From NCBI GenBank assembly GCA_013415695.1, contig JAAEEP010000006.1, forward strand, positions 21,318 to 85,317: DNA of 64,000 bases. Reading direction: 5' to 3'. Below, piece by piece: positions 2,699 through 64,000 of the stretch. The stretch is from Methanomassiliicoccales archaeon (GTDB lineage Archaea; Thermoplasmatota; Thermoplasmata; Methanomassiliicoccales; JAAEEP01). Each line of letters begins with the position of its first letter. Within the stretch, counting starts at the first letter, position 1. The notes beneath the pieces are model-generated. The model was not told the DNA's origin. It worked only from the letters and a program-made list of their open reading frames with translations, and ran no database searches. The position numbers and the translations under genes are program-made.

Positions 2699-5600
2699 TA
2701 TCTCACCCCCTCTAGGCAGGACTCGACCATTGCAAGTATCTGCTCGTTGGTGAAATGTTTGCTGATGATAGCCCCGTTGCAGCATGTCACTGCACATGTA
2801 CCGCATCCTTTGCAGAGCGCGGGGTTGATGCTGGCCTTGAAAACTCCTGGCTCAACTTCCTGCACTGTGATGGCGGAGAACTCACAGACTGCCTCGCATC
2901 TAGCGCAGCCCCGACATTTCACCTCCTCCACATAGCTTATTGTGGCCTCACCCTCCACGGTGTCCTTGGATATCACCATTATTGATCTTGATGCGGCTCC
3001 CGCCGCCTGGGCGATGCTCTCGTCCGCGAGCTTAGGCCAATGGGCAAGGCCTGCAAGGAACACCCCCTCGGTGGCGAAGTCCACCGGCCTGAGCTTCATG
3101 TGAGCCTCCAGGAAAAAGCCATCCTTGCTAAGGGGAACTTTGAGCATCTTCGCCAATTCCTCGTTGTCGGGATTGGGCTTAATGCCTGTGGAGAGTACCA
3201 CCATATCCGGTTGTACCGACACCTTGTCCCCAAGAATCACATCCTGGGCGGAAATATCGATGATGCCTCCATCCACCGTCATGTCTGGCATGGTGTCGTC
3301 CGGCATCCTTATGAACTTCACGCCAAGCTCGCCTGCCTCCCTGTAGAGATCTTCCTTGAAGCCGTAGGTCCGGATGTCTTTGTAGAACATGTATACCTCG
3401 GCCTCAGGGTTGGCCTTCTTGATGCTGATCGCATTGTTCATGGCAGTCGAGCAGCAGATGCGGCTGCACATCGGATTATCCTTAGTGCGGGAGCCAACAC
3501 ACTGGATCATGACCACATTCTTGGCCTCGAGAGGTTTCTCGGCCATCATCTCTGCCAACTCCAGCTGTGTGACCACGCGGTCATCCTCACCGTAGAAGTA
3601 CTCGGTGGGCTGGTATTCCTGTGCTCCCGTGGTCAGTATTATCGTGCCTGCCTCAATCTCTTCCTCCGGAAGTGATATCCTAAAGTTGCCCACGAAACCC
3701 GAGATGTTCTCAATCTCAGCGTTCAGATGTACGGTAATCTTCTCGTTTCTAGAGATCTTAGCAATGAGCTCATCGGATACCTGCTTGCCGGTCTTTCCAT
3801 CCTTGTAAATGTGGACCCGCTTCAGATTGCCTCCAAGGCCATCCGATCTTTCGATGATGTCCACATCGAAGCCTTGGGCGGCGATCTCGAGGGCGGTAAT
3901 CATCCCAGAGAGGCCACCTCCAATGATGGCGGCTGAGTGATAGACTTCAAGTTTAGTCCTCTCCAAAGGTGAGATGAGCCTTGCCTTCGCCACCGCCATT
4001 CTCACAAGGTCCTTGGCTTTCTCCGTGGCTTTCTTTGGCTCGTGAGAGTGCACCCATGAGCATTGGTCGCGTATGTTGGCCATCTCGAAGAGATACGGGT
4101 TCAGGCCGGCTTCCCTGATGGTACTCTGGAATAGAGTCTCGTGAGTCCTCGGTGTGCATGATGCCACGATCACCCTGTTGAGGTTGTTCACATTGATCAT
4201 CCTCTTGATGATCTCCTGAGTATCCTGGGAGCAGGTGTACAGGTTCGCCTCGGCGTGAACGACATTTGGCAGGGTCTTTGCATACTCCACCACCTCCGGG
4301 ACGTTGATCACCCCGCCGATGTTGATGCCGCAGTGGCATACGAACACCCCTATTCTGGGCTCTTGAGTCCTTATGTCGACCTCATGAGGATACTCCTTTG
4401 GTTTGGCAAGTGTATTCCTCCTATCCGAAATGATTGCCGATGCCTTAACCGCTGCTCCCGAAGCCTCGGCCACCGTGGTCGGGATGTCCATGGGAGCAGC
4501 GAATGACCCGCTTACGAATATGCCCTCCTTGGATGTACTCAGCGGATCCCAAGCACCGGTTTCACAGAAGCCGTACTTGTTCAGCTCAATGCCGAAGACC
4601 TCCTGCAATTTCCCGGCGCTGTTCGAAGGGCAGAGACCTACCGAAAGGACTGCCATTTCGAACTCTTCCTCGTAAACATCGCCCCCTTCGCTGTACCTGA
4701 CGATAATGTTCTTGGTCTCAGGGTCTTCCTCGAGAGAGGCCACCCTAACTCCCCGGTGAATAATAACGCCACGTTCAAGCTCAGCGCGCTTGCGGTAGTC
4801 CTCGAACTCCTTTCCGACCGCTCTCACATCCATGAAGAAGATGTGCGGTTCCAGTCCCTTGGCGTGTTCCCCAGCGATGATGGCCTGCTTGAGCGCGTAC
4901 ATGCAGCAGACTGATGAGCAGTAGGTGTTTCCTACCTTCTCATCCCTGGACCCAACGCATTGCAAGAACGCTATCTTGGAGGGTATGTCACCATCTGAAG
5001 GTCTAAGCACATGCCCGAGATATGGGCCAGTGGCGCTGAGAATCCTTTCAAATTCTATGCTGCTCACCACATTCAGGTATTCTCCATAGCCATACTCCTT
5101 CTTCACCGAAGGCTCAAATTCCTCCGAACCAGGCGAAAGAATGATAGAACCCACCTCGACCGCTACGGACCTGTCCGCCAGCTCGAAATCGATGGCTCCG
5201 GTATTGCATGAGAGCTTGCAGGCACCGCACCCTATGCAGAGTTCGGGATCAATGCTGTATACCAGGGGAACCGCTTGAAGGTAAAGCACAGATATCGCTT
5301 TCCTCCTCATGAGCCCCTCGTTGAACTCATCTACGTACTCGACGGGACAGTTCTCTGCACAGGTTCCGCAGCCTATGCATTTCTCTGGGTTGACCTTGGG
5401 TACCCTCTGTTTGAGCGTCACCTTGAAATTTCCGGGCTCACCCTCGCATTTTTCAAGATCCGCATTGTTTATTATTGTGATGTTGTGATGCCTTCCCGCC
5501 TGCACGAGTTTTGGGGCGAGTATGCACATCGCGCAATCGTTGGTGGGGAAGGTCTTGTCCAGCTGGGCCATCACGCCCCCGATGCTTGGCTTCTTCTCCA

Positions 5601-5700
5601 CCAAGTAGACTCTGAAGCCTGAGTCGGCAAGATCCAGGGCTGACTGTATTCCAGAGATGCCGCCCCCGACGACCATTACTGCGCCGATCTTTTCGCCCAT
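2695..5700 (-). CDS. hdrA: Double-length HdrA-like flavoprotein (about 1001 aa)
   Basis: N-half: GGGISGIQSALDLA, LDKTFPTNDCAMCILAPK, CIGCGTCAENCP, CIGCGACKLSC, CVGSRD..YCSSVCCMYALK. Middle: VFVCHCGINIGG..ASCTPR..DQCSWVH. C-half: a second GGGLSG Rossmann motif, IQCVGSR..MCSRICC, and terminal CRGCARCEAVC plus CKGCGTCAVTC. ATG 5700 has SD GGAGGTG; the track start 5709 is GTG. Confidence 0.85.
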   Translation of the reverse strand: MGEKIGAVMVVGGGISGIQSALDLADSGFRVYLVEKKPSIGGVMAQLDKTFPTNDCAMCILAPKLVQAGRHHNITIINNADLEKCEGEPGNFKVTLKQRVPKVNPEKCIGCGTCAENCPVEYVDEFNEGLMRRKAISVLYLQAVPLVYSIDPELCIGCGACKLSCNTGAIDFELADRSVAVEVGSIILSPGSEEFEPSVKKEYGYGEYLNVVSSIEFERILSATGPYLGHVLRPSDGDIPSKIAFLQCVGSRDEKVGNTYCSSVCCMYALKQAIIAGEHAKGLEPHIFFMDVRAVGKEFEDYRKRAELERGVIIHRGVRVASLEEDPETKNIIVRYSEGGDVYEEEFEMAVLSVGLCPSNSAGKLQEVFGIELNKYGFCETGAWDPLSTSKEGIFVSGSFAAPMDIPTTVAEASGAAVKASAIISDRRNTLAKPKEYPHEVDIRTQEPRIGVFVCHCGINIGGVINVPEVVEYAKTLPNVVHAEANLYTCSQDTQEIIKRMINVNNLNRVIVASCTPRTHETLFQSTIREAGLNPYLFEMANIRDQCSWVHSHEPKKATEKAKDLVRMAVAKARLISPLERTKLEVYHSAAIIGGGLSGMITALEIAAQGFDVDIIERSDGLGGNLKRVHIYKDGKTGKQVSDELIAKISRNEKITVHLNAEIENISGFVGNFRISLPEEEIEAGTIILTTGAQEYQPTEYFYGEDDRVVTQLELAEMMAEKPLEAKNVVMIQCVGSRTKDNPMCSRICCSTAMNNAISIKKANPEAEVYMFYKDIRTYGFKEDLYREAGELGVKFIRMPDDTMPDMTVDGGIIDISAQDVILGDKVSVQPDMVVLSTGIKPNPDNEELAKMLKVPLSKDGFFLEAHMKLRPVDFATEGVFLAGLAHWPKLADESIAQAAGAASRSIMVISKDTVEGEATISYVEEVKCRGCARCEAVCEFSAITVQEVEPGVFKASINPALCKGCGTCAVTCCNGAIISKHFTNEQILAMVESCLEGVRY
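3488..3600. repeat. Near-identical block shared with 7265-7377 (hdrA paralogs)
   Basis: By manual alignment, 89 nt are perfectly identical (3488-3576 = 7265-7353), and 113 nt match with 2 mismatches. Flanking sequence is much more diverged. Confidence 0.85.
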
Positions 5701-5701
5701 C

Positions 5702-6475
5702 TCAGGCACCTCCCCTCAACAGAGCCTTGTATTTCGGTGTAGGGCCCTCAATGGAGTCCATGCCTATGAGATTCCTCGACCTCAGAACGACTACTTGCTT
5801 CAGTATTTCTTGAGGGGGAGCACCTATCTCTTCCGCCAATTCCTTTACTGAGAGGGGATTGGTCTTAGTCAATTGGAGGATAAGATTTCTTTCATAGTCC
5901 TCCTTTACCACCACTTCGGTCAGCTCATCCAGTTCATCAACGTTGATGAGGTCGCCGTAGACATTCCCTCTCTGAGTAAGATCCAATTCCTTGCCGCTGA
6001 GAAGCCTCAGCCTGTACTCTCGGGCAGTCCCAATAGCGGCGTCGAGCTTCACTTGAAGCTCCTCATTGTCCTTGACCGGGGATGGTCCAAGCTTCTTCAG
6101 GTACTTGACGAAATCGTCGACAACCTCGGCGAACCTCTCGCCTTCCGAGGCTGAGACAGGTTCTAACCTCAGCCTCCCTGGGTCAAGACCAACGAATTCC
6201 ATCAACTGCCATGCCATCTCCACCCTCTTCTGCGTGTATATGTGAGCGGAGAGATTGCAGCAGTCCTCGATGTGACAACCCCCGATCAACACCCCATCAG
6301 CTCCCTCGCTGAACACTTCGAGGATTATGTGAGCGGTAATCCTGGTGCTGCAAAGCACCCTGATAGAGCGTATATTGGTTGAATACTGGAAATGACTCAC
6401 GCCTGCCAGGTCAGCACCGGCATAGGCGCAGAAGTTGCATAGGAAACCAATGATCTTTGGTTCAAAGTTGCTCAC
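5702..6475 (-). CDS. mvhD: MvhD-like domain with a C-terminal extension of about 120 aa resembling a winged helix-turn-helix
   Basis: GTG 6475 overlaps the hdrA stop (GTGA). Reads SNFEPKIIGFLCNFCAYAGADLAG..GADGVLIGGCHIEDC, then ..NLILQLTKTNPLSVKELAEEIGAPPQEILKQVVVLRSRNLIGMDSIEG. The track extension to 6694 is rejected. Confidence 0.75.
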   Translation of the reverse strand: MSNFEPKIIGFLCNFCAYAGADLAGVSHFQYSTNIRSIRVLCSTRITAHIILEVFSEGADGVLIGGCHIEDCCNLSAHIYTQKRVEMAWQLMEFVGLDPGRLRLEPVSASEGERFAEVVDDFVKYLKKLGPSPVKDNEELQVKLDAAIGTAREYRLRLLSGKELDLTQRGNVYGDLINVDELDELTEVVVKEDYERNLILQLTKTNPLSVKELAEEIGAPPQEILKQVVVLRSRNLIGMDSIEGPTPKYKALLRGGA

Positions 6476-9400
6476 TCCATCACCTCCTTGAGGGCCACAC
6501 AGGCCTCGGCCAGGAGCTGAGAATCTGTGTAATGCATGAGGACGATTGCCCCCACTGGGCAGGCTGCTCCGCAGGAGCCGCACCCCTTGCATAGGGCAGG
6601 GTTCACAGACGCTTTCAGAGCACCTGTGGAGTCTTCTTTCATATCTACCGCACTGAAAGCACAGACCTCCTGGCAAATGCCGCAAGCCCTGCACTTCAAT
6701 TCATCGATCACTGGAACCGGGGCCATCCCCTCTAACTCGCTCTTCGCGATTATGGTCATGGCCTTCGAAGCAACGGCCGCGCCCTGGGCGATGCTCTCGT
6801 TGGCAAGCTTCGGCCAATGGGCAAGACCTGCCATGTAAATACCTTCAGTGGAAAATTCCACAGGTCTTAACTTCATATGAGCCTCCTGGAAGAAGCCATC
6901 TTTGCTAAGGTGAATCTTTAGCATCCTTGCCAGCTTGCTCGAATCTTCCCTGGGTCTAATACCAGTGGAAAGGACCAAGAGGTCCGCATTGACAACCACC
7001 TCATCTCCGAGAATGAAGTCATTGGCGCTGACCAATAATCTACCATCTTCCATCTTGACCTCAGGCATTTCGGCATCAGGCATCCTTATGAACTTCACAC
7101 CCAACTCGCAAGCTTCCCGATAGAGATCCTCCCTGAGGCCGTAGGTCCTTATGTCCTTACAGAAAACAAAGACATTTGAACCTGGGTTGCTCCTCATTAC
7201 ATTAATTGCATTGTTCATAGCTGTCGTGCAGCAGATACAGCTGCACATCGGATTGTCCTCGGTCCGGGAGCCAACACACTGGATCATGACCACATTCTTG
7301 GCCTCGAGAGGTTTCTCGGCCATCATCTCTGCCAACTCCAGCTGTGTGACCACACGGTCATCCTCGCCGTAGAAGTATTCCTGTGGTTGATACTCCTCAG
7401 CGCCTGTGGCCACAATGATGGCCCCAGCCTTTATCGGTCCACCATTGGTATTGAGCACGAAGTTGCCCACGAAACCCGCTACTTCCTCTATCTCTGTCTC
7501 AAGATGGACGGTCACCCTATCATTTGACATGACTCTGGAAATCATCTCATCCGCAGCTTCCCTTCCGGTTTTGCCGTCTTGCTTAAAAAGCACTCTATTC
7601 AAATGACCTCCAAGCCTGTCTGATCTCTCGATCAGATCGACCTCGTAGCCATTACTGGCGATCTCCAGGGCGGATGTCATTCCGGCGAGACCGCCTCCTA
7701 TGACCGTGACGGAATGGCCAATTGGGAATGTGGGTGTTGTCAAAGGCTCAACCAGTCTTACCTTGGCCACTGCCATCTTAACCAGATCATTTGCCTTAGC
7801 GGTGGCCTTTCTCTTCTCATTCATGTGAACCCACGAGCATTGATCGCGTATGTTTGCCATCTCCAGGAGATACTGGTTCAGGCCAGCTTCCCTGATGCAA
7901 TTCTGGAATAGCAGTTCGTGTGTCCTTGGAGAACACGAAGCGATCACTATCCTGTTCAATCTGTGTTCTTCGATCTTCTCCTTCATCAATTCAAGTGCGT
8001 CCTGTGAGCACGCATAAAGGAAGTCGGAAACGCTGATCACATCGGGCAGTTCCTTCGTGGCCTGTACAACCTTCTTCACATTGACCACACCACCGATGTT
8101 TCTACCACAGTGACATACGAATACCCCTATTCTGGGCTTCTCACCCTGCACATCCTTTTCTGAGGGGTAGTCCTTTCGAAGGATGGAGACTTTCTCCCGT
8201 TCGGTGACGGTCGAAAGCGCTTTAGAAGCTGTTCCAGACGCCTCAGCGACAGAGGCTGGTATGTCCTTTGGTGCTGAGAAGGTCCCACACACGTAGATAC
8301 CATCCCTGGAAGTGGATAAAGGATCCCAGACGCTTGTGGAGCAGAATCCGTCCTTGTTGAGCTCGACGCCGAAAACCTTGGAGATTTCCCCGGCCGATGT
8401 GGTAGGGCAGACACCCACTGACAGAACCACAAGATCGAAGGTCTCCTCGACCAGTCTTTCACCATCGCTGTAGTGAACAATAAGGTTCTCGTCGTCATCC
8501 TCATCAATGGAGGCGACTCGAGTCCCTCGATGGATCACAACTCCTTCTTCCTGCTCCGCCCGGATACGATAGTCCTCGAACTCCTTGCCAACCGTCCTTA
8601 CGTCCATGAAGAATATGTGCGGCTCCACCTTATTGAGGCGGTTCTTGGCGATCATGGCTGCCTTGAGTGCATGCATGCAACAGACAGATGAACAGTAGGT
8701 GTTTCCTACCTTATCATCTCTGGAACCCACACATTGGAGGAATGCAATTCTATTTGGCGCCTTCTTGTCAGATGGCCTTAGTAATTGGCCTTCATAGGGT
8801 CCAGCAGTGCTGAGGATCCTTTCAAATTCTCTGCTCGACACAACATTCTTGAAGAACTCATAGCCGTACTCCGTCTTCATTGAGGCATTGCATTCATCAA
8901 AACCAGGACAGAGTATCACTGAGTTGACTTCGAACTCGATCTCCTCGTCCTCCATATCAAAATTGATGGCGTCGTACTCACAGACCTTTGCGCATATTCC
9001 GCACTTCCCCTGTGTCAGATATAGACAGGTCTCTGGATCTATGACCGCGGTCTTCGGAACCGCTTGTGGAAATGGAATATATATCGCCTTTCTCGTAGAT
9101 AGTCCAAGTTCCCAGTAATCTAGGACTCCTTTCACAGGACACTTCTCAATGCAGTCCCCACGACCCATGCATTTTTCCTGATCGATGTATGTGGCCTTCC
9201 TGAGAACCTTCACCTTGAAGTCTCCCTTGTCGCCCTCAAGCCCAATCACCTTGGAATGGGTTAGAACATTGATGTTTGGATGGCCATAGCAGTCAACCAT
9301 TTTCGGAGCCAGTATGCATATCGAGTAATCATTAGTTGGGAAAGTCTTGTCCAATTGGGCCATCTTCCCACCAATGCTTGGATCTTCTTCTACCAGATAC

Positions 9401-12198: not shown

Positions 12199-12510
12199 AT
12201 GGTAGTCAAGGACAAGAGGGGTAGAAGGCGGTACATTGCCTTCGTCCTAACCCAAGGTGGCCCGATTACTAAGAGCGGGCTCATCACGCTCCTGAGGGAA
12301 GCATCCAGAGAGTATAGGATTGAAGAACCGAGGGTGATCGAATTCGATGGGACGAAGGGCATAGTGAGATGCGGCCACCTTCTAAAGGAAGAGACTCTGG
12401 CGATCCTCGGTTCCTTCAGTGAACGAAAGGATGGCATTGAGGTCAAGACATTGAGCACTTCGGGGACGTTGAGGAAACTGAGAGAGCAATACTTCAATTC
12501 AGAAAATTGA
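12199..12510 (+). CDS. rnp2: RNase P protein component 2 (Pop5/Rnp2)
   Basis: 103 aa. RRRYIAF, GIVRC and TLSTSGTLRKLREQY match the archaeal Pop5 layout. Confidence 0.75.
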   Translation: MVVKDKRGRRRYIAFVLTQGGPITKSGLITLLREASREYRIEEPRVIEFDGTKGIVRCGHLLKEETLAILGSFSERKDGIEVKTLSTSGTLRKLREQYFNSEN

Positions 12511-12589
12511 CGAACCAGTTGCTAGCTGCTCTATCCATGGCATTACTTGGACAGGATAACGGGGGCTAATGCACCCTAGGAACTCAATC

Positions 12590-12629
12590 CAGCTACCCCA
12601 CCGCAAGTAGCTGAGTCATTTTCTTTTAT
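12590..12629 (+). terminator. Hairpin plus T-tract after rnp2
   Basis: CAGCTAC (12590-96) pairs with GTAGCTG (12607-13), followed by CATTTTCTTTTA. Confidence 0.4.
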
Positions 12630-12752
12630 GTAAACCATGGACCTAATCTGGATTTCATTCAACCTCGTGATTAATAATATATAGCTAGTAAAGTAGATAT
12701 TAACAATGTTCACAACACGAATGATACCTTCTTGTAATGGAGGAACGAAGGA

Positions 12753-14495
12753 ATGGCACAAAGCAAGGAAGGGACGATAGCGATCTATATTTGCTCTGAA
12801 CAGGACAAAATGTGTGATTTCATTGATCTTGAAAGCATCAGGGATATGCTCCTCCGTGAGAAGGACGTGGTCGATGTTCTCATACATCACCAACTCTGTG
12901 CCGTGGATGAGATCATCAAGATCGTGGAGAGATATCGAGAGCACAAGCCTGAGAGAGTCCTGTTGGGTTGCTGCCAGACCGCAACAAGTGAACGATTAAG
13001 GGAGTCATTGATAGAAGCTGGCCTGAACAAGTACCTCTATGAGAGGGTGAACCTCAAGGAGCTTGTCATGCTAGTCCATATAGACAGGGAGAGGTCGACT
13101 AGAAGGGCAAAATCCCTGCTGCTGAGCGGTTTGGCCCGCTTGCGGCGGGCCAAGCCGTTGGATGATATTGTCATGCCCATACGGGACAGCGTCCTCATCA
13201 TTGGAGGCGGCATAGCCGGAATGGCATCCGCGAAGGCCATTGCTGACGAGGGTTTCAAGGTCTATCTGGTGGAGAAGGAAAAACGACTTGGAGGGAGAGC
13301 GTATCAACTATCTACCACCTTCCCAACCCATGAATGCGGAATATGCTGCATGAGGTACTGCAAGGAGTGTGTTCTTACTCCAAAGATACCAGAAATCGCA
13401 ACACATCCTAATATCGAGGTTATGCTGAATAGTAATGTCACGCATATATCTGGGCGCTTTGGAGAGAGGCATATCGAGGTTGAATCGAATGGTGACATGC
13501 AAGAATTCGATGTTGGGATCATCATAGTGGCGACTGGCTCCAAAACCTTCGACCCCATTTCACTCCCAGAGTACAATTACGATAGGTTGGAGAATGTGGT
13601 GACCTCCATGGAGTTCTGCGACATCATGGCCAAAGCAAGCACCGCAGATTTCAGAAGGCCTTCCGACAACAAGATTCCCAAGGTTGTGAACTTCGTACTC
13701 TGCGTAGGATCCCGCGACTGCCATCGAGCCAACAACTACTGCTCCATAGTATGCTGCACATACGCGATCGGTTCGGCCAAGGAGTTTAAATTGGCCCACC
13801 CGGAGACAGAAGTCTACATACACTTCATCGATCTCAGAGGCCCATACAGGGGGTTCGAAACACTTCTTCTCGAGGCCAGGGAAGCAGGCGTGATATTCAT
13901 CAGGGGACGTGTGGCAGAGATAATCGATGATGACGGCGAGATACTGCTCAGGGTGGAGGATGCAGACGCTGGAGAGCTCTTGAACATCCATAGCGATCTC
14001 GTGATCCTCGCCGTGGGTCAGGAGCCAAGCGTTGGTTCGGAGGAGCTGGGGAAGATGCTCCGACTGCAGGTTGACATTGACGGATTCTTGAAGGACTTCA
14101 ACCCGATGTATCCTGAGGAGATTAGGAAGGGGATCTATGTGGTGGGTTGTGCCCAGGGTCCCAAGGGAATAAGATACTCCATCGACGACGCTAAGAGGAC
14201 AGCATTCGAAGTCATTAACCTCCTGAACAAGGGTGAGATATCAATTGATAATCTTGTCGCTGAGGTCAATGAGCATACCTGCCGTGGGTGCGGTCGATGC
14301 GTGGAGAACTGTCCCTTCGAAGCCGTTGAGCTGGTGGAAAAGGGTGACGAGAAGATCGCCCAAGTCGATGAAATGGTCTGCGAAGGATGTGGTATCTGCT
14401 CGGTGGTCTGCTGCAACAAATCGATAACCATGAGACATTATACGAGAGACAGCCTGCTTTCCCAGGTTCGCTCGGTGATCAAGGAGGTCAGCTAA
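12753..14495 (+). CDS. hdrA: Short HdrA-like flavoprotein (580 aa) with a degenerate CHCG-type N-domain and an extra Cys insertion
   Basis: The N-domain-like segment has YICSEQ instead of VCHCG. Then IIGGGIAGMASAKAIADEG, LSTTFPTHECGICCMRYCKECVLTPK, CVGSRD..YCSIVCCTYA, and C-terminal CRGCGRCVENCP plus CEGCGICSVVC. SD GGAGG lies 9 nt upstream of the ATG. Confidence 0.8.
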   Translation: MAQSKEGTIAIYICSEQDKMCDFIDLESIRDMLLREKDVVDVLIHHQLCAVDEIIKIVERYREHKPERVLLGCCQTATSERLRESLIEAGLNKYLYERVNLKELVMLVHIDRERSTRRAKSLLLSGLARLRRAKPLDDIVMPIRDSVLIIGGGIAGMASAKAIADEGFKVYLVEKEKRLGGRAYQLSTTFPTHECGICCMRYCKECVLTPKIPEIATHPNIEVMLNSNVTHISGRFGERHIEVESNGDMQEFDVGIIIVATGSKTFDPISLPEYNYDRLENVVTSMEFCDIMAKASTADFRRPSDNKIPKVVNFVLCVGSRDCHRANNYCSIVCCTYAIGSAKEFKLAHPETEVYIHFIDLRGPYRGFETLLLEAREAGVIFIRGRVAEIIDDDGEILLRVEDADAGELLNIHSDLVILAVGQEPSVGSEELGKMLRLQVDIDGFLKDFNPMYPEEIRKGIYVVGCAQGPKGIRYSIDDAKRTAFEVINLLNKGEISIDNLVAEVNEHTCRGCGRCVENCPFEAVELVEKGDEKIAQVDEMVCEGCGICSVVCCNKSITMRHYTRDSLLSQVRSVIKEVS

Positions 14496-16108
14496 TGGAG
14501 GGGGAGGCTTTCGATCCGGTCGTGGTCACATTCGCCTGCAACTGGTGCGGTTATCCCGCAGCGAGATTGACCGGAGTTCAGAACATCGATTATCCATCGG
14601 GAATCAAGATCGTTCGGGTGATGTGTACTGGGAGGGTCGATCCGGCCATGATAATGAAGGCCTTCGAGTACGGCGCGGACGGTGTGGCCCTCGTCGGTTG
14701 CCGCATGGACGAGTGCCACTTCCTTGAGGGAAACAAGAAGGCCAAAGAGAGAGTGGAAGCGATAAAGAAGATCCTCGATTACATCGGTCTTGATGGGGGT
14801 CGTCTGGAAGCTGAGTGGTTGGCCGCAGCCGAGACAAAGAAATTCGCAAAGCTCACTAACGACCTCGTCTCGAAGATAAAGGAACTCGGTCCAAACCCCA
14901 TTCCGCGAATCGGTGAGATGGGTGAGGAGGAGGCTGTCTTCGACAAGGACGCGATCGATGATATTATCTCGAGCACCAGCGCCCACGACTGCGTGGAGTG
15001 CGGTAAGTGCACTAGCGTATGCCCGGTGGCCAGGTTCGATGAGGAGTTCGCTCCCAGGAGAATAGTGCTTCGAGCCCTTGAGGGAGTGTCCGACAAACTT
15101 GCCGAAGACAAGGACATATGGTCCTGCATCACCTGCGAGATGTGCAATGCTATGTGCCCCTACGAGGTCGATTACTCCGAGTTCATCAGGAGAATGAGAT
15201 CGGAGGCCGTGCTGTTAGGGGGAAGGCATGATTCGATAATCAAGGAATGCCCCCAAGGTGGGATGCTGCAGAGCATGATGAGGATCATGGCATATACCGA
15301 GAAGCAGAATAGGCTCTCCTGGATACCTGAGGATGTGAGGATCCAGACAACGGGAGATGTCTTCTACTTCACAGGTTGTCTTCCCCACATGGACTTGGTG
15401 TTCAGAGACCGGGAATTGGACCTTACCCAGACCGCAGTGAGCGCTATCAAGCTTCTGAACCACGCTGGTATCGAGCCCGTGGTGAGCAACAACGAGGTCT
15501 GCTGTGGTCACGATCTCAATTGGGTAGGTGATGAGGATAGTTTCGAGCTGCTGATGAACAAGAACATCGAGGCCATTAAGGAGAGTGGGGCAAAGACGGT
15601 GGTCTTCACCTGCCCCGAGGGACTTAGAACCTTCGATATTGATTACAGGGACATACTTGGGGATCTGGATTTCGAAGTGATGCACATCTCGGAGTTCCTT
15701 CTGGAGCTTGCGGATGAAGGCGATATCGACCTCTCCTCGGACAACAGTGGAACAGTGACCCTTCACGAGTCCTGTAGGCTGGGCAGGCATCTGGGCATCT
15801 ACGATCCGCCGCGAGAGCTACTGGAAAGAGCGGGGATCGAGATCAAGGAAATGGAGAACGTAAGGGACAAGGCCATCTGTTGTGGTGTCAGCTCTTTCGT
15901 GGCATGCAGCGAATCGGCTCAAAAAATGCAGCTCGAGAGAATAATGGAGGCCAAGAGGACTGAAGCAGAGACCCTTCTGACAGTCTGCCCCAAGTGCAGG
16001 ATACACCTGAGCTGCGCGATCTCAAAGGAGATCCCTTGTGACCGCGAGTTGGTGGACATTCCTATCGAGGATTATACTGTGTACCTTGCTAGGCACTTGA
16101 ACCTATGA
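14495..16108 (+). CDS. MvhD-HdrC-HdrB triple fusion (537 aa)
   Basis: ATG 14495 overlaps the upstream stop (TAATG) and follows AAGGAGG. MvhD part: VVVTFACNWCGYPAARLTG..GCRMDECHF. HdrC part: CVECGKCTSVCP and CITCEMCNAMCP. HdrB CCG part: VCCGHD and AICCGV. The track extension from 14387 is rejected. Confidence 0.85.
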   Translation: MEGEAFDPVVVTFACNWCGYPAARLTGVQNIDYPSGIKIVRVMCTGRVDPAMIMKAFEYGADGVALVGCRMDECHFLEGNKKAKERVEAIKKILDYIGLDGGRLEAEWLAAAETKKFAKLTNDLVSKIKELGPNPIPRIGEMGEEEAVFDKDAIDDIISSTSAHDCVECGKCTSVCPVARFDEEFAPRRIVLRALEGVSDKLAEDKDIWSCITCEMCNAMCPYEVDYSEFIRRMRSEAVLLGGRHDSIIKECPQGGMLQSMMRIMAYTEKQNRLSWIPEDVRIQTTGDVFYFTGCLPHMDLVFRDRELDLTQTAVSAIKLLNHAGIEPVVSNNEVCCGHDLNWVGDEDSFELLMNKNIEAIKESGAKTVVFTCPEGLRTFDIDYRDILGDLDFEVMHISEFLLELADEGDIDLSSDNSGTVTLHESCRLGRHLGIYDPPRELLERAGIEIKEMENVRDKAICCGVSSFVACSESAQKMQLERIMEAKRTEAETLLTVCPKCRIHLSCAISKEIPCDRELVDIPIEDYTVYLARHLNL

Positions 16109-59981: not shown

Positions 59982-61019
59982 TTAGAATTCTAGTAGGGAC
60001 CGCTGGTCCTTTGCCAGGGGATAGGAATCGATACTCAGCCTGGTTTGGATTTGAGATGCAAGATCTCTCTCGAAGCCATGATGAGTATACACCACGGAAG
60101 GCTCGCATTTTTCAGTGAACCACAGAAGGTCGTTGAAATCGGCATGGTCTGAAAGTATGAATGCCTCGTCCACGCCCATCCTTTGCCTGAACGAGGAATC
60201 AACGGCCCACCCCGAAATCGAGATGGTGAGCATACCCTTCTTGCGCAGGTTCTCGATGAAGCTCGCCCTTCTTACCCCCGTGGGGCATATCATTAGGAAC
60301 GGCTCCTCCATTCTTCTAAGATCAAATGGCCGATAGGAGAACTCCACTCCGACATCCTCTATCAGCTGGGTCATGAGCAGTGAGGATCCGTAGAGATAGG
60401 GATCCATATCCTTGAACAGCATGAGCATCTCCTGGGACTTGCCCAGGGGATATGCAAGAACCGCAACTGACCTTCCTGAGGCGAGCTTGTCCTCGACCCA
60501 GTCCAATATGGTCCGCTCCATCTCCTCCCTTGGGGGAAAGATGTAGCGCGGCAGCCCAAAGGTGGATTCCAGGATCAGGATATCGGTCTTGACGGGCTTC
60601 GCCCCCATCAATCCCAGACGATCCCTGGAACACATATCTCCGGTGTAAAGGACCCTCTGTTCGCCCTCGAACAGGAACATGTTCGACCCGAGTATATGAC
60701 CGGAGTCCAGTACCTTGACCTGGGGATGTTCCTTGATCTTCAGTTTCCGCTTGAGCCGGTCCTGAGCACATCTTTGGGTAATGGGAGAGCATATCACTTC
60801 ATCACCCAGCATCTTACTGGGCAGGTGATCGAAGTGAGCGTGGGATATGCAGTAGATCCCGCTGTGACCTATGTCGACGGGGTCGAAGTAGCATTTCACC
60901 TCTCCTAGGAGTTCAACGCCGTTCCCAAGTCGAACATTCGGACCCTCCACCATGCGCACCCCATATTGCCCCATGGCTATATTTGACTTGACCCGAACTC
61001 GGTTGATTTGCCCGCCCAT
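59982..61019 (-). CDS. Beta-CASP family metallo-beta-lactamase-fold nuclease (short form)
   Basis: HAHFDH, SGHILGS, YTGDM, ESTFG, SDHAD and YTHHG motifs in canonical order. The start is uncertain (61019, 60974 or 60953). Confidence 0.8.
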   Translation of the reverse strand: MGGQINRVRVKSNIAMGQYGVRMVEGPNVRLGNGVELLGEVKCYFDPVDIGHSGIYCISHAHFDHLPSKMLGDEVICSPITQRCAQDRLKRKLKIKEHPQVKVLDSGHILGSNMFLFEGEQRVLYTGDMCSRDRLGLMGAKPVKTDILILESTFGLPRYIFPPREEMERTILDWVEDKLASGRSVAVLAYPLGKSQEMLMLFKDMDPYLYGSSLLMTQLIEDVGVEFSYRPFDLRRMEEPFLMICPTGVRRASFIENLRKKGMLTISISGWAVDSSFRQRMGVDEAFILSDHADFNDLLWFTEKCEPSVVYTHHGFERDLASQIQTRLSIDSYPLAKDQRSLLEF

Positions 61020-61153
61020 TCAATGGAAATGGAATCGAGGGATCCAGGCTTGCTGGTTCGAGCGGGATGGCACCCATCCTGACACTTTCGGGCATCTCTC
61101 ACGCTCATTCTTTTTAGAATAGCTTGAGGTAGTGAAGTTCAGAGGAAGATGAG

Positions 61154-61885
61154 ATGTTCACCGTCCACGAGAACCTGTCATCACTGGGTACAGTCGAGGG
61201 CGAGATGTACCTTCCCCCCGAGCGCAGGGTGCGGACATCACTGCCCGCGATCGACTCCTTCTTTCCTGGGTTCAGATCATCCCAGATCGCCCTGATAGAC
61301 AGCTCGGACAAGTTCCTCTTTGATCTCACCCACCTCCTCTGCGTAAACGCCATCAGTGACCTGGGGGAGGAGGTAGTGTGGGTGGACGGGGGAAACTCCA
61401 TCAATCCCTACGAAATCGCCTCCCTTTGCAGGAGATTCCGCCTGGACATGAGAGAGACCCTGGACAGCGTCAACATCGCCCGGGCATTCACCGCTTACCA
61501 GATGACCTCTCTCATCGTGGACAAGCTGGAGAGAGAGGTGGAGCGCACGAGAAGCGGCACGGTGATCGTCTCCTGCTTCACCGACCTGTTCCACGACAAG
61601 GACATGTGGTGGTCGGAATCGTTCCAGCTCATCAAACGCTGCCTCTCATCCCTGAGGGAGATGACCGAAAGACATTCGTTGGTGACCATAGTGACCAACT
61701 ACGGCCTCACTAAGATCGGTCACAAGCGGAGCCTTAGCACCTTGATGGAGGAGAGCGCCGACTCCATACTGCGCATCGAGAATAGAAAAAGGGTGCTGGA
61801 GCTGTCCCTGGTGAAGGAGGGGAGGATAATGCTCTACCACCCCGTGCCCTACTATCAGACCACGCTTGACGAGTTCCTGAGGTGA
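61154..61885 (+). CDS. RecA/RadB-superfamily-like protein with degenerate Walker A and B motifs
   Basis: Collinear with RadB. TSLPAIDSFFPGF aligns to the dimer/N-cap. IALIDSSDKFLFDL sits where GxxGxGKT should be. VVWVDGGNSINPYEI aligns to VxYIDTEGxFxPER. GTVIVSCFTDLF sits where hhhhDS should be. Confidence 0.6.
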   Translation: MFTVHENLSSLGTVEGEMYLPPERRVRTSLPAIDSFFPGFRSSQIALIDSSDKFLFDLTHLLCVNAISDLGEEVVWVDGGNSINPYEIASLCRRFRLDMRETLDSVNIARAFTAYQMTSLIVDKLEREVERTRSGTVIVSCFTDLFHDKDMWWSESFQLIKRCLSSLREMTERHSLVTIVTNYGLTKIGHKRSLSTLMEESADSILRIENRKRVLELSLVKEGRIMLYHPVPYYQTTLDEFLR

Positions 61886-61889
61886 TGTA

Positions 61890-62132
61890 ATGGGCAGGAC
61901 AGTTCCCACCTATCGCAGGACGCTAGAATCCATAATTCGAGAGTGGGGAGATTTTCGAAGAGCCTTGGACCGTGAGGACAGAGAAGCCTTCGATAAGGTA
62001 ATGGCGAGGGCTAGAAAGCACTCGTCCGCTTCCTCCTACGCCGCGCTCTGCGATCCCCTGGAGGCGGTGCTGTTGTCCATCCTTCTGGAGCAGGAGAAGG
62101 AGATCGAGTCCCTGAGGAAGGGGAACGAATGA
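61890..62132 (+). CDS. Unrecognised 80-aa predicted helical protein
   Basis: ORF sandwiched between neighbours: 4 nt after the upstream gene, and an ATGA overlap with the polB-like gene. Confidence 0.5.
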   Translation: MGRTVPTYRRTLESIIREWGDFRRALDREDREAFDKVMARARKHSSASSYAALCDPLEAVLLSILLEQEKEIESLRKGNE

Positions 62133-64000
62133 GAGGCTGGATCCTAGATTGCCACCCGGACTACGGGCTCAACTCCATGGTGATGTGGGTCAGGACCGCC
62201 GAGAGAGCGGAGCGCCTGGTCCATGATTATCGACCTGATATCTACGTCTGGGCACCAGCGGTGGAGATGCAATCCCTGCCCAGGAGGCTGGAGATGATCG
62301 ACTTCCCGGACACCTCGATCGAGAGGAAGCGATTGTGGCTGGGCGAGCGCGAGAGGGAGGCGTTGAGGGTGGGAATCCCCCGATACTCGGACATCCAGAA
62401 CCTGGCGCGGACGATCGACAGCTGGGGCCATCATGACCGCTACCGTCTGTTCAACGTGGACCTCCGCCTGGAGCAGCGCTTCCTCCTGGAGAGGGGACTG
62501 TTCCCCCTGGCCCTCACCGACATGAACAACTTGCGGGCACTTGACTCCCCGTGGAGACATGACTACCCCCTCCCACAGTTCAGGGAGGCCATTCTAGACA
62601 TCGCGGTCAGGGCGGAGAACGGCATCCCCACCTTCGACGATCGGCTGAAGAAGGTGACCGTAAACGACATTGAGCTGGACGGTCCCGAGGACCACATCCT
62701 CGAGGAACTCAACCGGGTGATAGCGGAGCTGGATCCCGACATCGTGTACACCGGACGAGGAGATGATTTCTACATGCACTACCTCGCCCGGAGGGCGGAG
62801 GAACACGGAATGGTAATGGAGCTGGGAAGGGGAGAAGGCGCCCGGATGTCAAAGGGAAAGAGCTACTTCACCTACGGTCGCATACTTTACAAACCACCCG
62901 CTTACAAATTACGGGGCCGAATCCACATAGACCGGGAGCAATCCTTCATGTACGTGGAGGCCGGCGGGATGTACGGCCTCATCGACCTCTCGAGGATGTC
63001 GCTCATCCCGGTGCAGGACCTCTCCCGCCTGTCACCGGGGAGCGCCATAAGCGCCATGCAGGTGAACGAGGCCCTGCGCACGGGCCACCTCATTCTGTGG
63101 AAGAAGAACATTCCCGAGGAGTTCAAGACCGCCAGGGAGCTGCTGATCTGCGACCGTGGGGGTTTCATCCACAACCCGGTGGTGGGCATTCACGACTCCG
63201 TCACCGAGTTGGACTTCTGCTCTCTGTACCCCAACATCATGGTGAGGTACAACATCTCCCCCGAGACCCTGATGTGCGACTGCTGCCCCCGATCATCCAT
63301 CAGGGTGCCCGAGATCGGGTACCACTTCTGCGAGCGGGAGAGGGGCCTGATACCTCGGGTGATCGAACCCGTGATAAGAAGAAGGATGGCTTGCAAACGC
63401 CTCGCCAGGGAGGCCCCAAGACACAACGACATCTACGCCCAGAGGGCCAAGGTGCTCAAGTGGATCCTGGTCACCTGCTTCGGCTACACCGGGTACCGCA
63501 ACGCCCGCTTCGGACGCATCGAGTGCCACGAGTCGATCACCGCCTACGGAAGGGAGATCCTATTGCGGAGTTCGGAGATCGCCGAGCGCAGGGGATTCAG
63601 GGTGCTCCACGGTATAGTGGACTCGCTGTGGCTCTCTGGCGATGGGGACTGCGAATCGTTCTGCGAGGAGATCGACAGGGAGTTCGATATACCCCTGGAG
63701 GTGGAAGGCCACTACAGTTGGATCGTGTTTCTCCCCTGCGTCACCACTGACATCGGTGCGCTCAACCGATACTACGGGCTCTTCGACGACGGAGAGCTGA
63801 AGACCCGAGGGATAGCGGTCAGGAAGAGGGACACGCCCCCGTTGATAAAGGATGTGCAGCACGAAATGCTCCACGAGCTTTCGAAGGCCTCCTGCTCCAG
63901 TGAGTTCCAAGACCGGATAGCCGGGGTGCTGGACCTCTTGTGTATCCACGCAGGAAAGCTTCTCGACGGCTCAGTACCGCTGGAGAAGCTCATCCTCACC
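62129..64000 (+). CDS. polB: Family B DNA polymerase, PolB2-like, 5' 624 codons (runs off window end)
   Basis: Manual translation stays open from ATG 62129 to 64000: MRGWILDCHPDY.. Motif A is DFCSLYPNIM (frame verified at 63179). The motif B-like segment is KWILVTCFGYTGY. Motif C reads LHGIVDSLW instead of YGDTDS (frame verified at 63599). Exo I reads LDIAV instead of FDIE, and Exo II reads GDDFYMHYL instead of NFDxxYL. Confidence 0.8.
   Translation, partial: MRGWILDCHPDYGLNSMVMWVRTAERAERLVHDYRPDIYVWAPAVEMQSLPRRLEMIDFPDTSIERKRLWLGEREREALRVGIPRYSDIQNLARTIDSWGHHDRYRLFNVDLRLEQRFLLERGLFPLALTDMNNLRALDSPWRHDYPLPQFREAILDIAVRAENGIPTFDDRLKKVTVNDIELDGPEDHILEELNRVIAELDPDIVYTGRGDDFYMHYLARRAEEHGMVMELGRGEGARMSKGKSYFTYGRILYKPPAYKLRGRIHIDREQSFMYVEAGGMYGLIDLSRMSLIPVQDLSRLSPGSAISAMQVNEALRTGHLILWKKNIPEEFKTARELLICDRGGFIHNPVVGIHDSVTELDFCSLYPNIMVRYNISPETLMCDCCPRSSIRVPEIGYHFCERERGLIPRVIEPVIRRRMACKRLAREAPRHNDIYAQRAKVLKWILVTCFGYTGYRNARFGRIECHESITAYGREILLRSSEIAERRGFRVLHGIVDSLWLSGDGDCESFCEEIDREFDIPLEVEGHYSWIVFLPCVTTDIGALNRYYGLFDDGELKTRGIAVRKRDTPPLIKDVQHEMLHELSKASCSSEFQDRIAGVLDLLCIHAGKLLDGSVPLEKLILT

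Follow-up and report, generated by a model that had tools for sequence, protein, structure and literature searches.

A Methanomassiliicoccales iRadA-PPB2-PolB2 operon with a conserved promoter element resembling the Sulfolobus DNA damage-response element

At the end of a 64,000-nucleotide (nt) stretch of contig JAAEEP010000006.1 from a Methanomassiliicoccales archaeon (the window), positions 59982 to 64000 hold four open reading frames (ORFs): one on the minus strand, encoding a beta-CASP metallo-beta-lactamase (MBL) nuclease, and three coupled ones on the plus strand, encoding a Rad51-like protein, a small helical protein, and a family B DNA polymerase. Very probably, the plus-strand triad is a standard group 1a iRadA-PPB2-PolB2 operon and the divergent nuclease is a separately promoted neighbor rather than one of its components. 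As a module the triad is already known, and the copy described here is a textbook one with nothing new to it; novelty is limited to a conserved promoter element upstream of iRadA, which resembles the DNA damage-response element of Sulfolobus. Our analysis covers gene order, motifs, family membership, synteny statistics, and the conservation of the promoter element, and we attribute complex formation, translesion synthesis, and damage induction to the triad by analogy with published systems.

Results

Identity of the plus-strand triad

An operon of PolB2, a ~90-amino-acid (aa) helical protein of arCOG07300, and an inactivated RadA was predicted earlier, and its products were proposed to form a DNA damage-related complex (Makarova, Krupovic & Koonin 2014, PMC4104785). 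Timinskas, Timinskas & Venclovas (2025, PMC11791011) catalogued 1823 such operons, renamed the two partners PPB2 and iRadA, and modeled a PolB2:iRadA:PPB2x3 heteropentamer, the modeled sets including the proteins of a Methanomassiliicoccus sp. operon. An initial annotation of the window had read the triad as a damage tolerance module, with the polymerase served by the RecA-like and small proteins as accessory subunits, and this agrees with both publications. The annotation also took the module to be undescribed and named an existing description of the operon as what would count against this; the papers of 2014 and 2025 are such descriptions, and the claim to novelty falls; the link to the nuclease, discussed below, is unsupported. 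In the window, iRadA, PPB2, and PolB2 are adjacent and codirectional, in the order of group 1a operons. The coordinates bear out the 4-nt gap between the iRadA stop and the PPB2 start and the ATGA overlap within which PolB2 starts, and the genes are translationally coupled and transcribed from their own promoter. The linkage of the triad is not confined to this genome, since the identical order was found in 11 further Methanomassiliicoccales loci; the closest relative found, contig L009 of a Methanomassiliicoccales metagenome-assembled genome (DATKXF010000024.1), shows 93-97% protein identity.

As the initial annotation had noted for both large plus-strand proteins, alignments confirmed that iRadA and PolB2 lack canonical residues. 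iRadA aligned with RadA/DMC1/Rad51 cores of the Protein Data Bank from residue 57 on only and has no N-terminal helical domain. Its residues F-L-F align to the GKT of Walker A and a Ser to the Asp of Walker B, and GK[TS] was found in 0/10 orthologues. Absence of the Walker residues and of the N-terminal domain is a published trait of iRadA (PMC4104785, PMC11791011). At the C terminus, QTTLDEFL (61856-61879; QTTLDEFLR at the end) matches, at the level of the motif only, a PCNA-interacting-peptide-like (PIP-like) sequence, in which Q235 and T237 are invariant and T236 and L238 nearly invariant among orthologues; by this motif, iRadA probably tethers the complex to PCNA. No clamp motif of the QxxLxxFF type was seen at the C terminus of the full-length PolB2 of L009. 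The presence of the motif on iRadA and not on this PolB2 agrees with the published pattern, in which it is mostly iRadA that carries the clamp motif and seldom the two proteins together (PMC11791011).

The AlphaFold (AF2) model of PPB2 has a free N-terminal arm and helices at residues 8-25, 28-42, and 56-79, with a predicted local distance difference test (pLDDT) score of 76. Residues G2, R3, T4, T7, and R9 are invariant across the Methanomassiliicoccales and Nanohaloarchaeal orthologues, and PPB2 has the size, the helical make-up, and the MGRT arm with Arg3 and Arg9 of the family, the arm being a published motif with published interactions (PMC11791011). A direct Pfam search with PPB2 of the window returned sub-threshold noise only, and its PF26485 label is taken from precomputed matches on near-identical homologues: among the matches listed, 120/120 PPB2 homologues carried PF26485, some of them up to 99% identical. 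BLASTP against a PF26485-labeled Nanohaloarchaeal PPB2 gave E = 6e-16.

In PolB2, motif A (DFCSLYPN) is intact with its Asp, D363, whereas motif C reads HGIVDS in place of YxDTDS, aligned to YIDTDG of P. abyssi PolB; the first Asp of DxD is substituted and the second is kept as D498. Motif B reads KWILVTCFGY, with the Asn lost and Tyr replaced by Phe. The exonuclease site is lost as well, since DIE of Exo I is DSP, lacking the Glu, and the Asn and Asp of Exo II are missing. The motif A Asp, the second Asp of motif C, and the exonuclease and DxD substitutions are all invariant in relatives, and the region from motif B to motif C is nearly identical to that of a catalogued Thermoplasmata PolB2 (PMC11791011 data file). 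An FxxA-type segment, F332-K-T-A335, precedes D342-R343 and lies ~150 residues ahead of IVD; in the S. islandicus counterpart the spacing is 253-DK to 401-IID (PMC11791011). DRGG is invariant and [F/P]K[T/K]A conserved in relatives. Judged by sequence and position, FKTA ahead of the D(K/R) motif would correspond to the published Rad51-oligomerization-like motif that binds iRadA. Two of the related polymerase genes are irregular: that of L002 (5741-7899, minus strand) is split into ORFs of 136 and 583 aa by a frameshift, as a pseudogene, or through an assembly error, and the C terminus of that of L005 (5421-7829, minus strand) runs across masked or N bases.

Gene order, tight coupling, protein sizes, the MGRT/R3/R9 arm of PPB2, the ATPase-dead and N-terminally truncated RadA with its PIP-like motif, the substituted DxD, the dead exonuclease, and the FxxA-like segment ahead of D(K/R) are all shared with the described PolB2 mutasome operons, and nothing material differs at the protein level. 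The neighbors do differ. There is no orc1/cdc6, SRAP, DUF72, or lexA gene at the locus, which, unlike the described neighborhoods, is embedded beside a ribosomal-protein/secY/cmk/cbf5 cluster, whose end lies upstream on the plus strand, and the beta-CASP gene.

A conserved promoter element upstream of iRadA

Comparison of the iRadA upstream regions, the spacers of which are otherwise unalignable, revealed a conserved pattern, cACTTTCGGgcAcCTCcC (consensus cACTTTCGGgcAcCTCcCcC). We found 13 instances of it in 12/12 Methanomassiliicoccales PolB2 loci, which are phylogenetically related, each followed at ~27 nt by a TTTATA-type box and at 60-70 nt by the start codon. All 13 contain the hexamer ANTTTC, which in the window is ACTTTC at 61084-61089. 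If transcription starts ~26-30 nt downstream of the TATA box, the operon leader would be roughly 10 nt long and would carry the GAGG at 61142-61145. The sub-pattern ANTTTCRGN4CTC, chosen after both this element and that of the Sulfolobales had been seen, has one match in the window, at the iRadA promoter, against 0.22 expected. The fetched loci, 2.17 Mb in all, contain 24 matches, of which 11 fall at Methanomassiliicoccales PolB2 promoters and none elsewhere in those 12 PolB2 loci, the background being 13 in 1.89 Mb of other loci. When up to two mismatches to the element were allowed, the window contained three matches, against 0.65 expected. An antisense copy with one mismatch, TCTTTCGGTCATCTCCC (61656-61672, minus strand), lies inside the iRadA coding region and is probably a chance match.

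On metagenome contig L124, a DUF2284 gene and a gene for a small membrane protein (4606-7213) are inserted between iRadA and PPB2-PolB2, and in this split operon the element and the TATA box are duplicated directly upstream of PPB2. The element is also present in L135, a PolB2 locus without the nuclease. We are confident that it is a genuine cis-element specific to the operon. No significant RNA structure was detected in the spacer or leader (z-score -0.09). Nanohaloarchaeal PolB2 promoters lack the element; the iRadA genes there are preceded by another conserved block, CGGAATTGCGGAAgCTC..GGCTGGTTTAAATGG (about 6350-6400 in L017 and about 6930-6990 in L130), and this points to a promoter or operator of the same operon that is particular to that lineage.

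The divergent nuclease

The motifs of the beta-CASP nuclease are all intact, as initially annotated: HxHxDH at H60/H62/D64/H65, H108, D128, E151, D291-H292, and H314. In a family alignment of 16 sequences, MBL motifs 1-4 and beta-CASP motifs A, B, and C were invariant or nearly so. The AF2 model (pLDDT 89) recovered the beta-CASP fold and left residues 1-24 disordered. Homologues, 320-330 aa long, begin at the residue equivalent to M23 (window position 60953), the longest ORF being over-extended by 22 codons, and the TATA-like box of the gene, at about 60978-60985, sits within this nonconserved N-terminal extension; a similar box is present in L001. Since homologues start at M23, the preceding residues are disordered, and the box lies inside the extension, the real intergenic spacer is ~200 nt. 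The genes are indeed divergent, but the 134-nt shared spacer first reported holds for the longest ORF only.

The nuclease falls below every curated family cutoff. Its best match was TIGR04122, the ligase-associated exonuclease family (125.7 bits, cutoff 325), and it scored 49.5 bits against TIGR03675 (cutoff 580). It shares the MBL plus beta-CASP fold and all metal-binding and beta-CASP motifs with TIGR04122, SNM1A/Apollo, and CPSF73/IntS11/aCPSF, and like the SNM1/Apollo cores it is minimal, at ~320 aa. It differs from the curated families in its scores, in having no KH, C-terminal dimerization, or other extra domains, and in having no ligase, Lhr, or MPE neighbors; ligase and Lhr were absent from the neighborhoods of all 80 genome loci scanned, Verrucomicrobial relatives included. 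CPSF73/IntS11/aCPSF and Apollo/SNM1A matched about equally well in fold and profile searches, and we therefore dropped the fold as a guide to an RNA or a DNA substrate. A DNA repair role based on the neighbors of distant homologues was likewise rejected, as these are housekeeping genes without ligase or Lhr, the recurrent ones in Verrucomicrobia and Nitrosopumilaceae being purD, folD, purN, IleRS, GrpE, and STAS/SpoIIE.

The link between nuclease and triad was followed from both directions, by MBL-centered scans with a family alignment (80 genome loci and 49 metagenome loci) and by PolB2- and PPB2-centered look-ups. An arrangement of cbf5 and the nuclease followed by the divergent iRadA-PPB2-PolB2 operon was present in Methanomassiliicoccales loci L001, L002, L003, L005, L009, and L013 and on L124, and PPB2-centered look-ups found the nuclease nearby in L134, L136, and L137, L134 being the locus of M. 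luminyensis. L135 has a ribosomal L3 operon in its place. Overall, the nuclease lay within 3 kb in 10/11 other Methanomassiliicoccales PolB2 loci. The genes for TctA and an ABC transporter downstream of PolB2 were kept at the same frequency, in 10/11. Other genes (ACT, PAS, alpha/beta-hydrolase, and ORFs without a Pfam match) separate the nuclease from iRadA in at least six loci (L002, L003, L005, L013, L124, and L137). Those without a Pfam match include genes of 193 and 197 aa in L002 (9125-9706, minus strand) and L005 (9272-9865, minus strand), on the same strand as iRadA, and L005 has an extra 80-aa ORF (8953-9195, minus strand) just upstream of iRadA. In the mostly Methanomassiliicoccales-type loci L004, L007, L008, and L010, the nuclease is present and PolB2 is not within reach. 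Sysuiplasmatales L011 and L014 (9900-14900) keep secY-cmk-cbf5-nuclease with no PolB2 operon at the site, and because this order is kept without PolB2, the nuclease appears to have stood ancestrally at the end of the ribosomal cluster that holds cbf5.

Among Nanohaloarchaea, PolB2 is adjacent in only 2 of about 50 nuclease loci and is absent in relatives 80-90% identical to L017, one of the two; synteny breaks upstream of the nuclease. The PolB2-centered look-ups there gave no direct nuclease adjacency in 3/3 cases (a VRR_NUC neighbor, the nuclease 4.4 kb away, and Na+/H+ exchangers). In L130, a gene for a nuclease with the VRR_NUC domain (6347-6916, minus strand) diverges from iRadA-PPB2-PolB2, taking the place that the beta-CASP gene has in the window. 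In the published catalogue, Lactamase_B occurs in only 54/1823 polB2 neighborhoods (Timinskas et al., PMC11791011).

Readings of the locus

Some of our observations weigh against a standard operon beside an independent nuclease. The window holds 624 codons of PolB2, the C terminus being deduced from the L009 relative (739 aa, 95% identical), and this 624-aa fragment scores 445.7 bits against NCBIfam NF004416 (cutoff 516; profile positions 2-547 of 665); a score under the full-length cutoff is expected for a fragment, yet it does not amount to formal membership. In the window, L009, L001, L134, and L136, the nuclease directly adjoins the operon and diverges from it, and in Nanohaloarchaeal contigs L017 and L095 the genes run codirectionally as iRadA-PPB2-PolB2-nuclease, with the nuclease directly downstream of PolB2. 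The latter facts, with the high frequency of the nuclease within 3 kb, would fit a four-gene repair module in which the nuclease works together with the PolB2 mutasome and is co-regulated with it by way of the divergent spacer that they share; the nuclease might be an SNM1/Apollo-like 5' exonuclease that processes lesions or cross-links before PolB2 fills in. It would also fit that where extra genes part the nuclease from cbf5 (L003, L005, L134, and L137) the nuclease stays on the PolB2 side, that its size and full-length alignment match SNM1A/Apollo DNA exonuclease cores, and that its nearest curated family is a DNA damage-response exonuclease. We nevertheless regard such a module as improbable. 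The unrelated TctA/ABC flank, which served as the control in the synteny statistics, is conserved equally well, unrelated genes often intervene, the promoter element always stands beside and facing iRadA and no nuclease promoter has its own copy, and in L135 operon and element are both kept although the nuclease is missing. Sysuiplasmatales have the converse, cbf5 and nuclease without PolB2, the Nanohaloarchaeal adjacency is sporadic, few catalogued polB2 neighborhoods hold Lactamase_B, and the nuclease family is widespread, with housekeeping neighbors in Nitrosopumilaceae and Verrucomicrobia. The equal conservation of the TctA/ABC flank explains the adjacency by order-wide synteny: the nuclease is probably a neighbor by descent in a syntenic block, cbf5-MBL-[operon]-TctA-ABC, and its inclusion in the module is unsupported.

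For the triad, the initial annotation had left room for a noncatalytic DNA-binding complex; PolB2 would then be dead and the complex structural or regulatory. This was the original interpretation of Rogozin 2008 and Makarova 2014 (PMC4104785), and IVD in motif C, the changes in motif B, and the loss of Exo I and II speak for it. However, S. islandicus Dpo2, which carries IID at this position, is a robust exonuclease-free polymerase specialized for the extension of mismatched or lesion-opposed termini (PMC8764526), and the S. islandicus and S. solfataricus enzymes both incorporate nucleotides and extend mismatches robustly (PMC8764526, PMC11791011). Moreover, the invariance of the motif A Asp and the second motif C Asp in all relatives indicates selection on catalysis. 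We give a noncatalytic complex very little credence and retain the reading of the triad as a group 1a PolB2 operon.

Comparison with the Sulfolobales damage-responsive element

ANTTTC is the hexamer essential for promoters inducible by UV light or 4-nitroquinoline 1-oxide (NQO) in Sulfolobales, where it is footprinted by Orc1-2; it lies at -44 to -39 relative to the start site of transcription (TSS) in S. acidocaldarius, and the 20-bp consensus of S. islandicus is AATAGTTTCRGWDTACTCWS (PMC5817253, PMC6061795). In S. islandicus, dpo2 is damage inducible in an Orc1-2-dependent manner, and Dpo2 is needed for targeted mutagenesis. The element of the window shares several features with these damage-responsive elements. 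Its ACTTTC is identical to the hexamer of the S. acidocaldarius upsE and upsA elements; the hexamer is followed by RG and, four bases later, by CTC(W)S, as in the S. islandicus consensus; and the element is nonpalindromic and stands upstream of the core promoter of a PolB2 (dpo2) operon. There are also differences. The element lies ~27 nt upstream of the TATA box, whereas the Sulfolobus hexamer abuts the B recognition element (BRE)/TATA, and the hexamer is at about -55 to -60 from the predicted TSS rather than at the Sulfolobales position. The host belongs to another phylum, Thermoplasmatota. Our literature search returned no mention of ANTTTC outside the Sulfolobales.

We put the chances at about even that the element serves an unrelated regulator as an operator peculiar to this lineage, its resemblance to the Orc1-2 element being a coincidence. 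Its hexamer is ~13-15 nt further from the TATA box than that of Sulfolobus; only about 11-13/20 positions match AATAGTTTCRGWDTACTCWS, which by a rough estimate is not significant alone; Nanohaloarchaeal PolB2 promoters do without it; and neither a crude Walker A screen of the ORFs of the window nor the annotated loci showed an orc1/cdc6 candidate. Against coincidence stand the presence of the essential hexamer in every instance and its identity with the upsE/upsA elements, the flanking RG and CTC(W)S at the same spacing, the orthology of the regulated operon with Orc1-2-dependent dpo2 genes, and the enrichment of orc1/cdc6 genes beside polB2 in other archaea (PMC11791011, PMC4104785). That cACTTTCGGgcAcCTCcC is a true counterpart of the Sulfolobales Orc1-2 element we consider possible but doubtful. 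The ANTTTC-containing element is suggestive of damage-inducible expression of the operon, and it is a modest, testable lead on damage regulation outside the Sulfolobales.

Features of the locus

The coordinates of the features are listed in Table 1. Just past the end of the window in related loci, a convergent TctA gene and an ABC transporter pair are kept immediately downstream of PolB2 order-wide.

Table 1. Features of the locus and positions of the promoter element and downstream flank in related loci
Feature	Position	Strand	Remarks
MBL/beta-CASP ORF	59982-61019	-	longest ORF, 345 aa
Minimal beta-CASP metallo-beta-lactamase nuclease	59982..60953	-	~323 aa from conserved start M23; ORF extends to 61019
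TATA-like box AAATATAG of nuclease gene	about 60976..60988	-	read from sequence; ~26 nt upstream of M23 ATG
Upstream promoter element CACTTTCGGGCATCTCTCAC	61083..61102	+	holds ANTTTC hexamer; starts 70 nt before iRadA ATG, ~27 nt before TATA box
TATA-like box TTTTTAGAATA of iRadA-PPB2-PolB2 operon	61111..61121	+	read from sequence; aligns with TTTATA-type boxes in 12 loci
iRadA (Rad51-like ORF), inactivated RadA/Rad51 paralogue	61154..61885	+	243 aa; Pfam Rad51 match of 36 bits, residues 59-189 only
PPB2 (arCOG07300 / PF26485 DUF8156), all-helical PolB2 partner	61890..62132	+	80 aa; N-terminal arm MGRTVPTYR
PolB2, exonuclease-dead family B polymerase, predicted translesion type	62129..64000	+	first 624 of ~739 codons; reaches window end
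Promoter element in related loci	L009 9933; L002 8936; L003 8135; L005 8857; L013 9431; L124 7280 and 4919; L134 9210; L135 9179; L137 9194		sequence comparison; variants in L001 and L136
TctA/ABC flank in related loci	L009 5342-6715; L001 5060-6586; L134-L137 about 12400-15700

Discussion

Going by its homology to the Sulfolobales system and by the published models, the triad would be a translesion synthesis mutasome. PolB2 would be its catalytic subunit, without proofreading and with the motif A Asp and the second motif C Asp kept, and would extend mispaired or lesion-opposed primer ends. iRadA, an ATPase-dead RadA core, is predicted to dock on the FKTA segment of PolB2 and would probably tether the complex to PCNA through its C-terminal QTTLDEFL. 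PPB2 would be present as a trimer, with one MGRT...R9 arm inserted between PolB2 and iRadA, near the DNA. The operon would be expressed from its own promoter with the conserved, operon-specific upstream element. A functional analogy with the E. coli Pol V mutasome (UmuD'2C-RecA-ATP) has been drawn (PMC11791011): both would combine a translesion polymerase, a small oligomeric accessory protein, a RecA-family subunit, and clamp binding. Pol V differs in that its polymerase is of the Y family and its RecA an active monomer that comes from a filament, in contrast to the B-family polymerase, the dedicated ATPase-dead RadA paralogue, and the unrelated helical trimer of the triad.

The locus is useful as a clean annotation, with iRadA, PPB2/DUF8156, and PolB2 replacing "RadB-like," "hypothetical," and "DNA polymerase I." The locus also serves as a caution, since a divergent neighbor that looks like a repair gene would be present by synteny alone.

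To our knowledge, how archaea outside the Sulfolobales sense DNA damage and respond to it transcriptionally is largely unknown, and the element described here is a concrete probe of such regulation, being short, operon specific, and conserved across one order of Thermoplasmatota. A true counterpart of the Orc1-2 element may, in genomes where nuclease and operon have a common spacer, act both ways and also induce the beta-CASP gene. If the correspondence holds, an ANTTTC-based damage regulon of the Orc1/Cdc6 type, with PolB2 as a core target, would be common to Thermoproteota and Thermoplasmatota.

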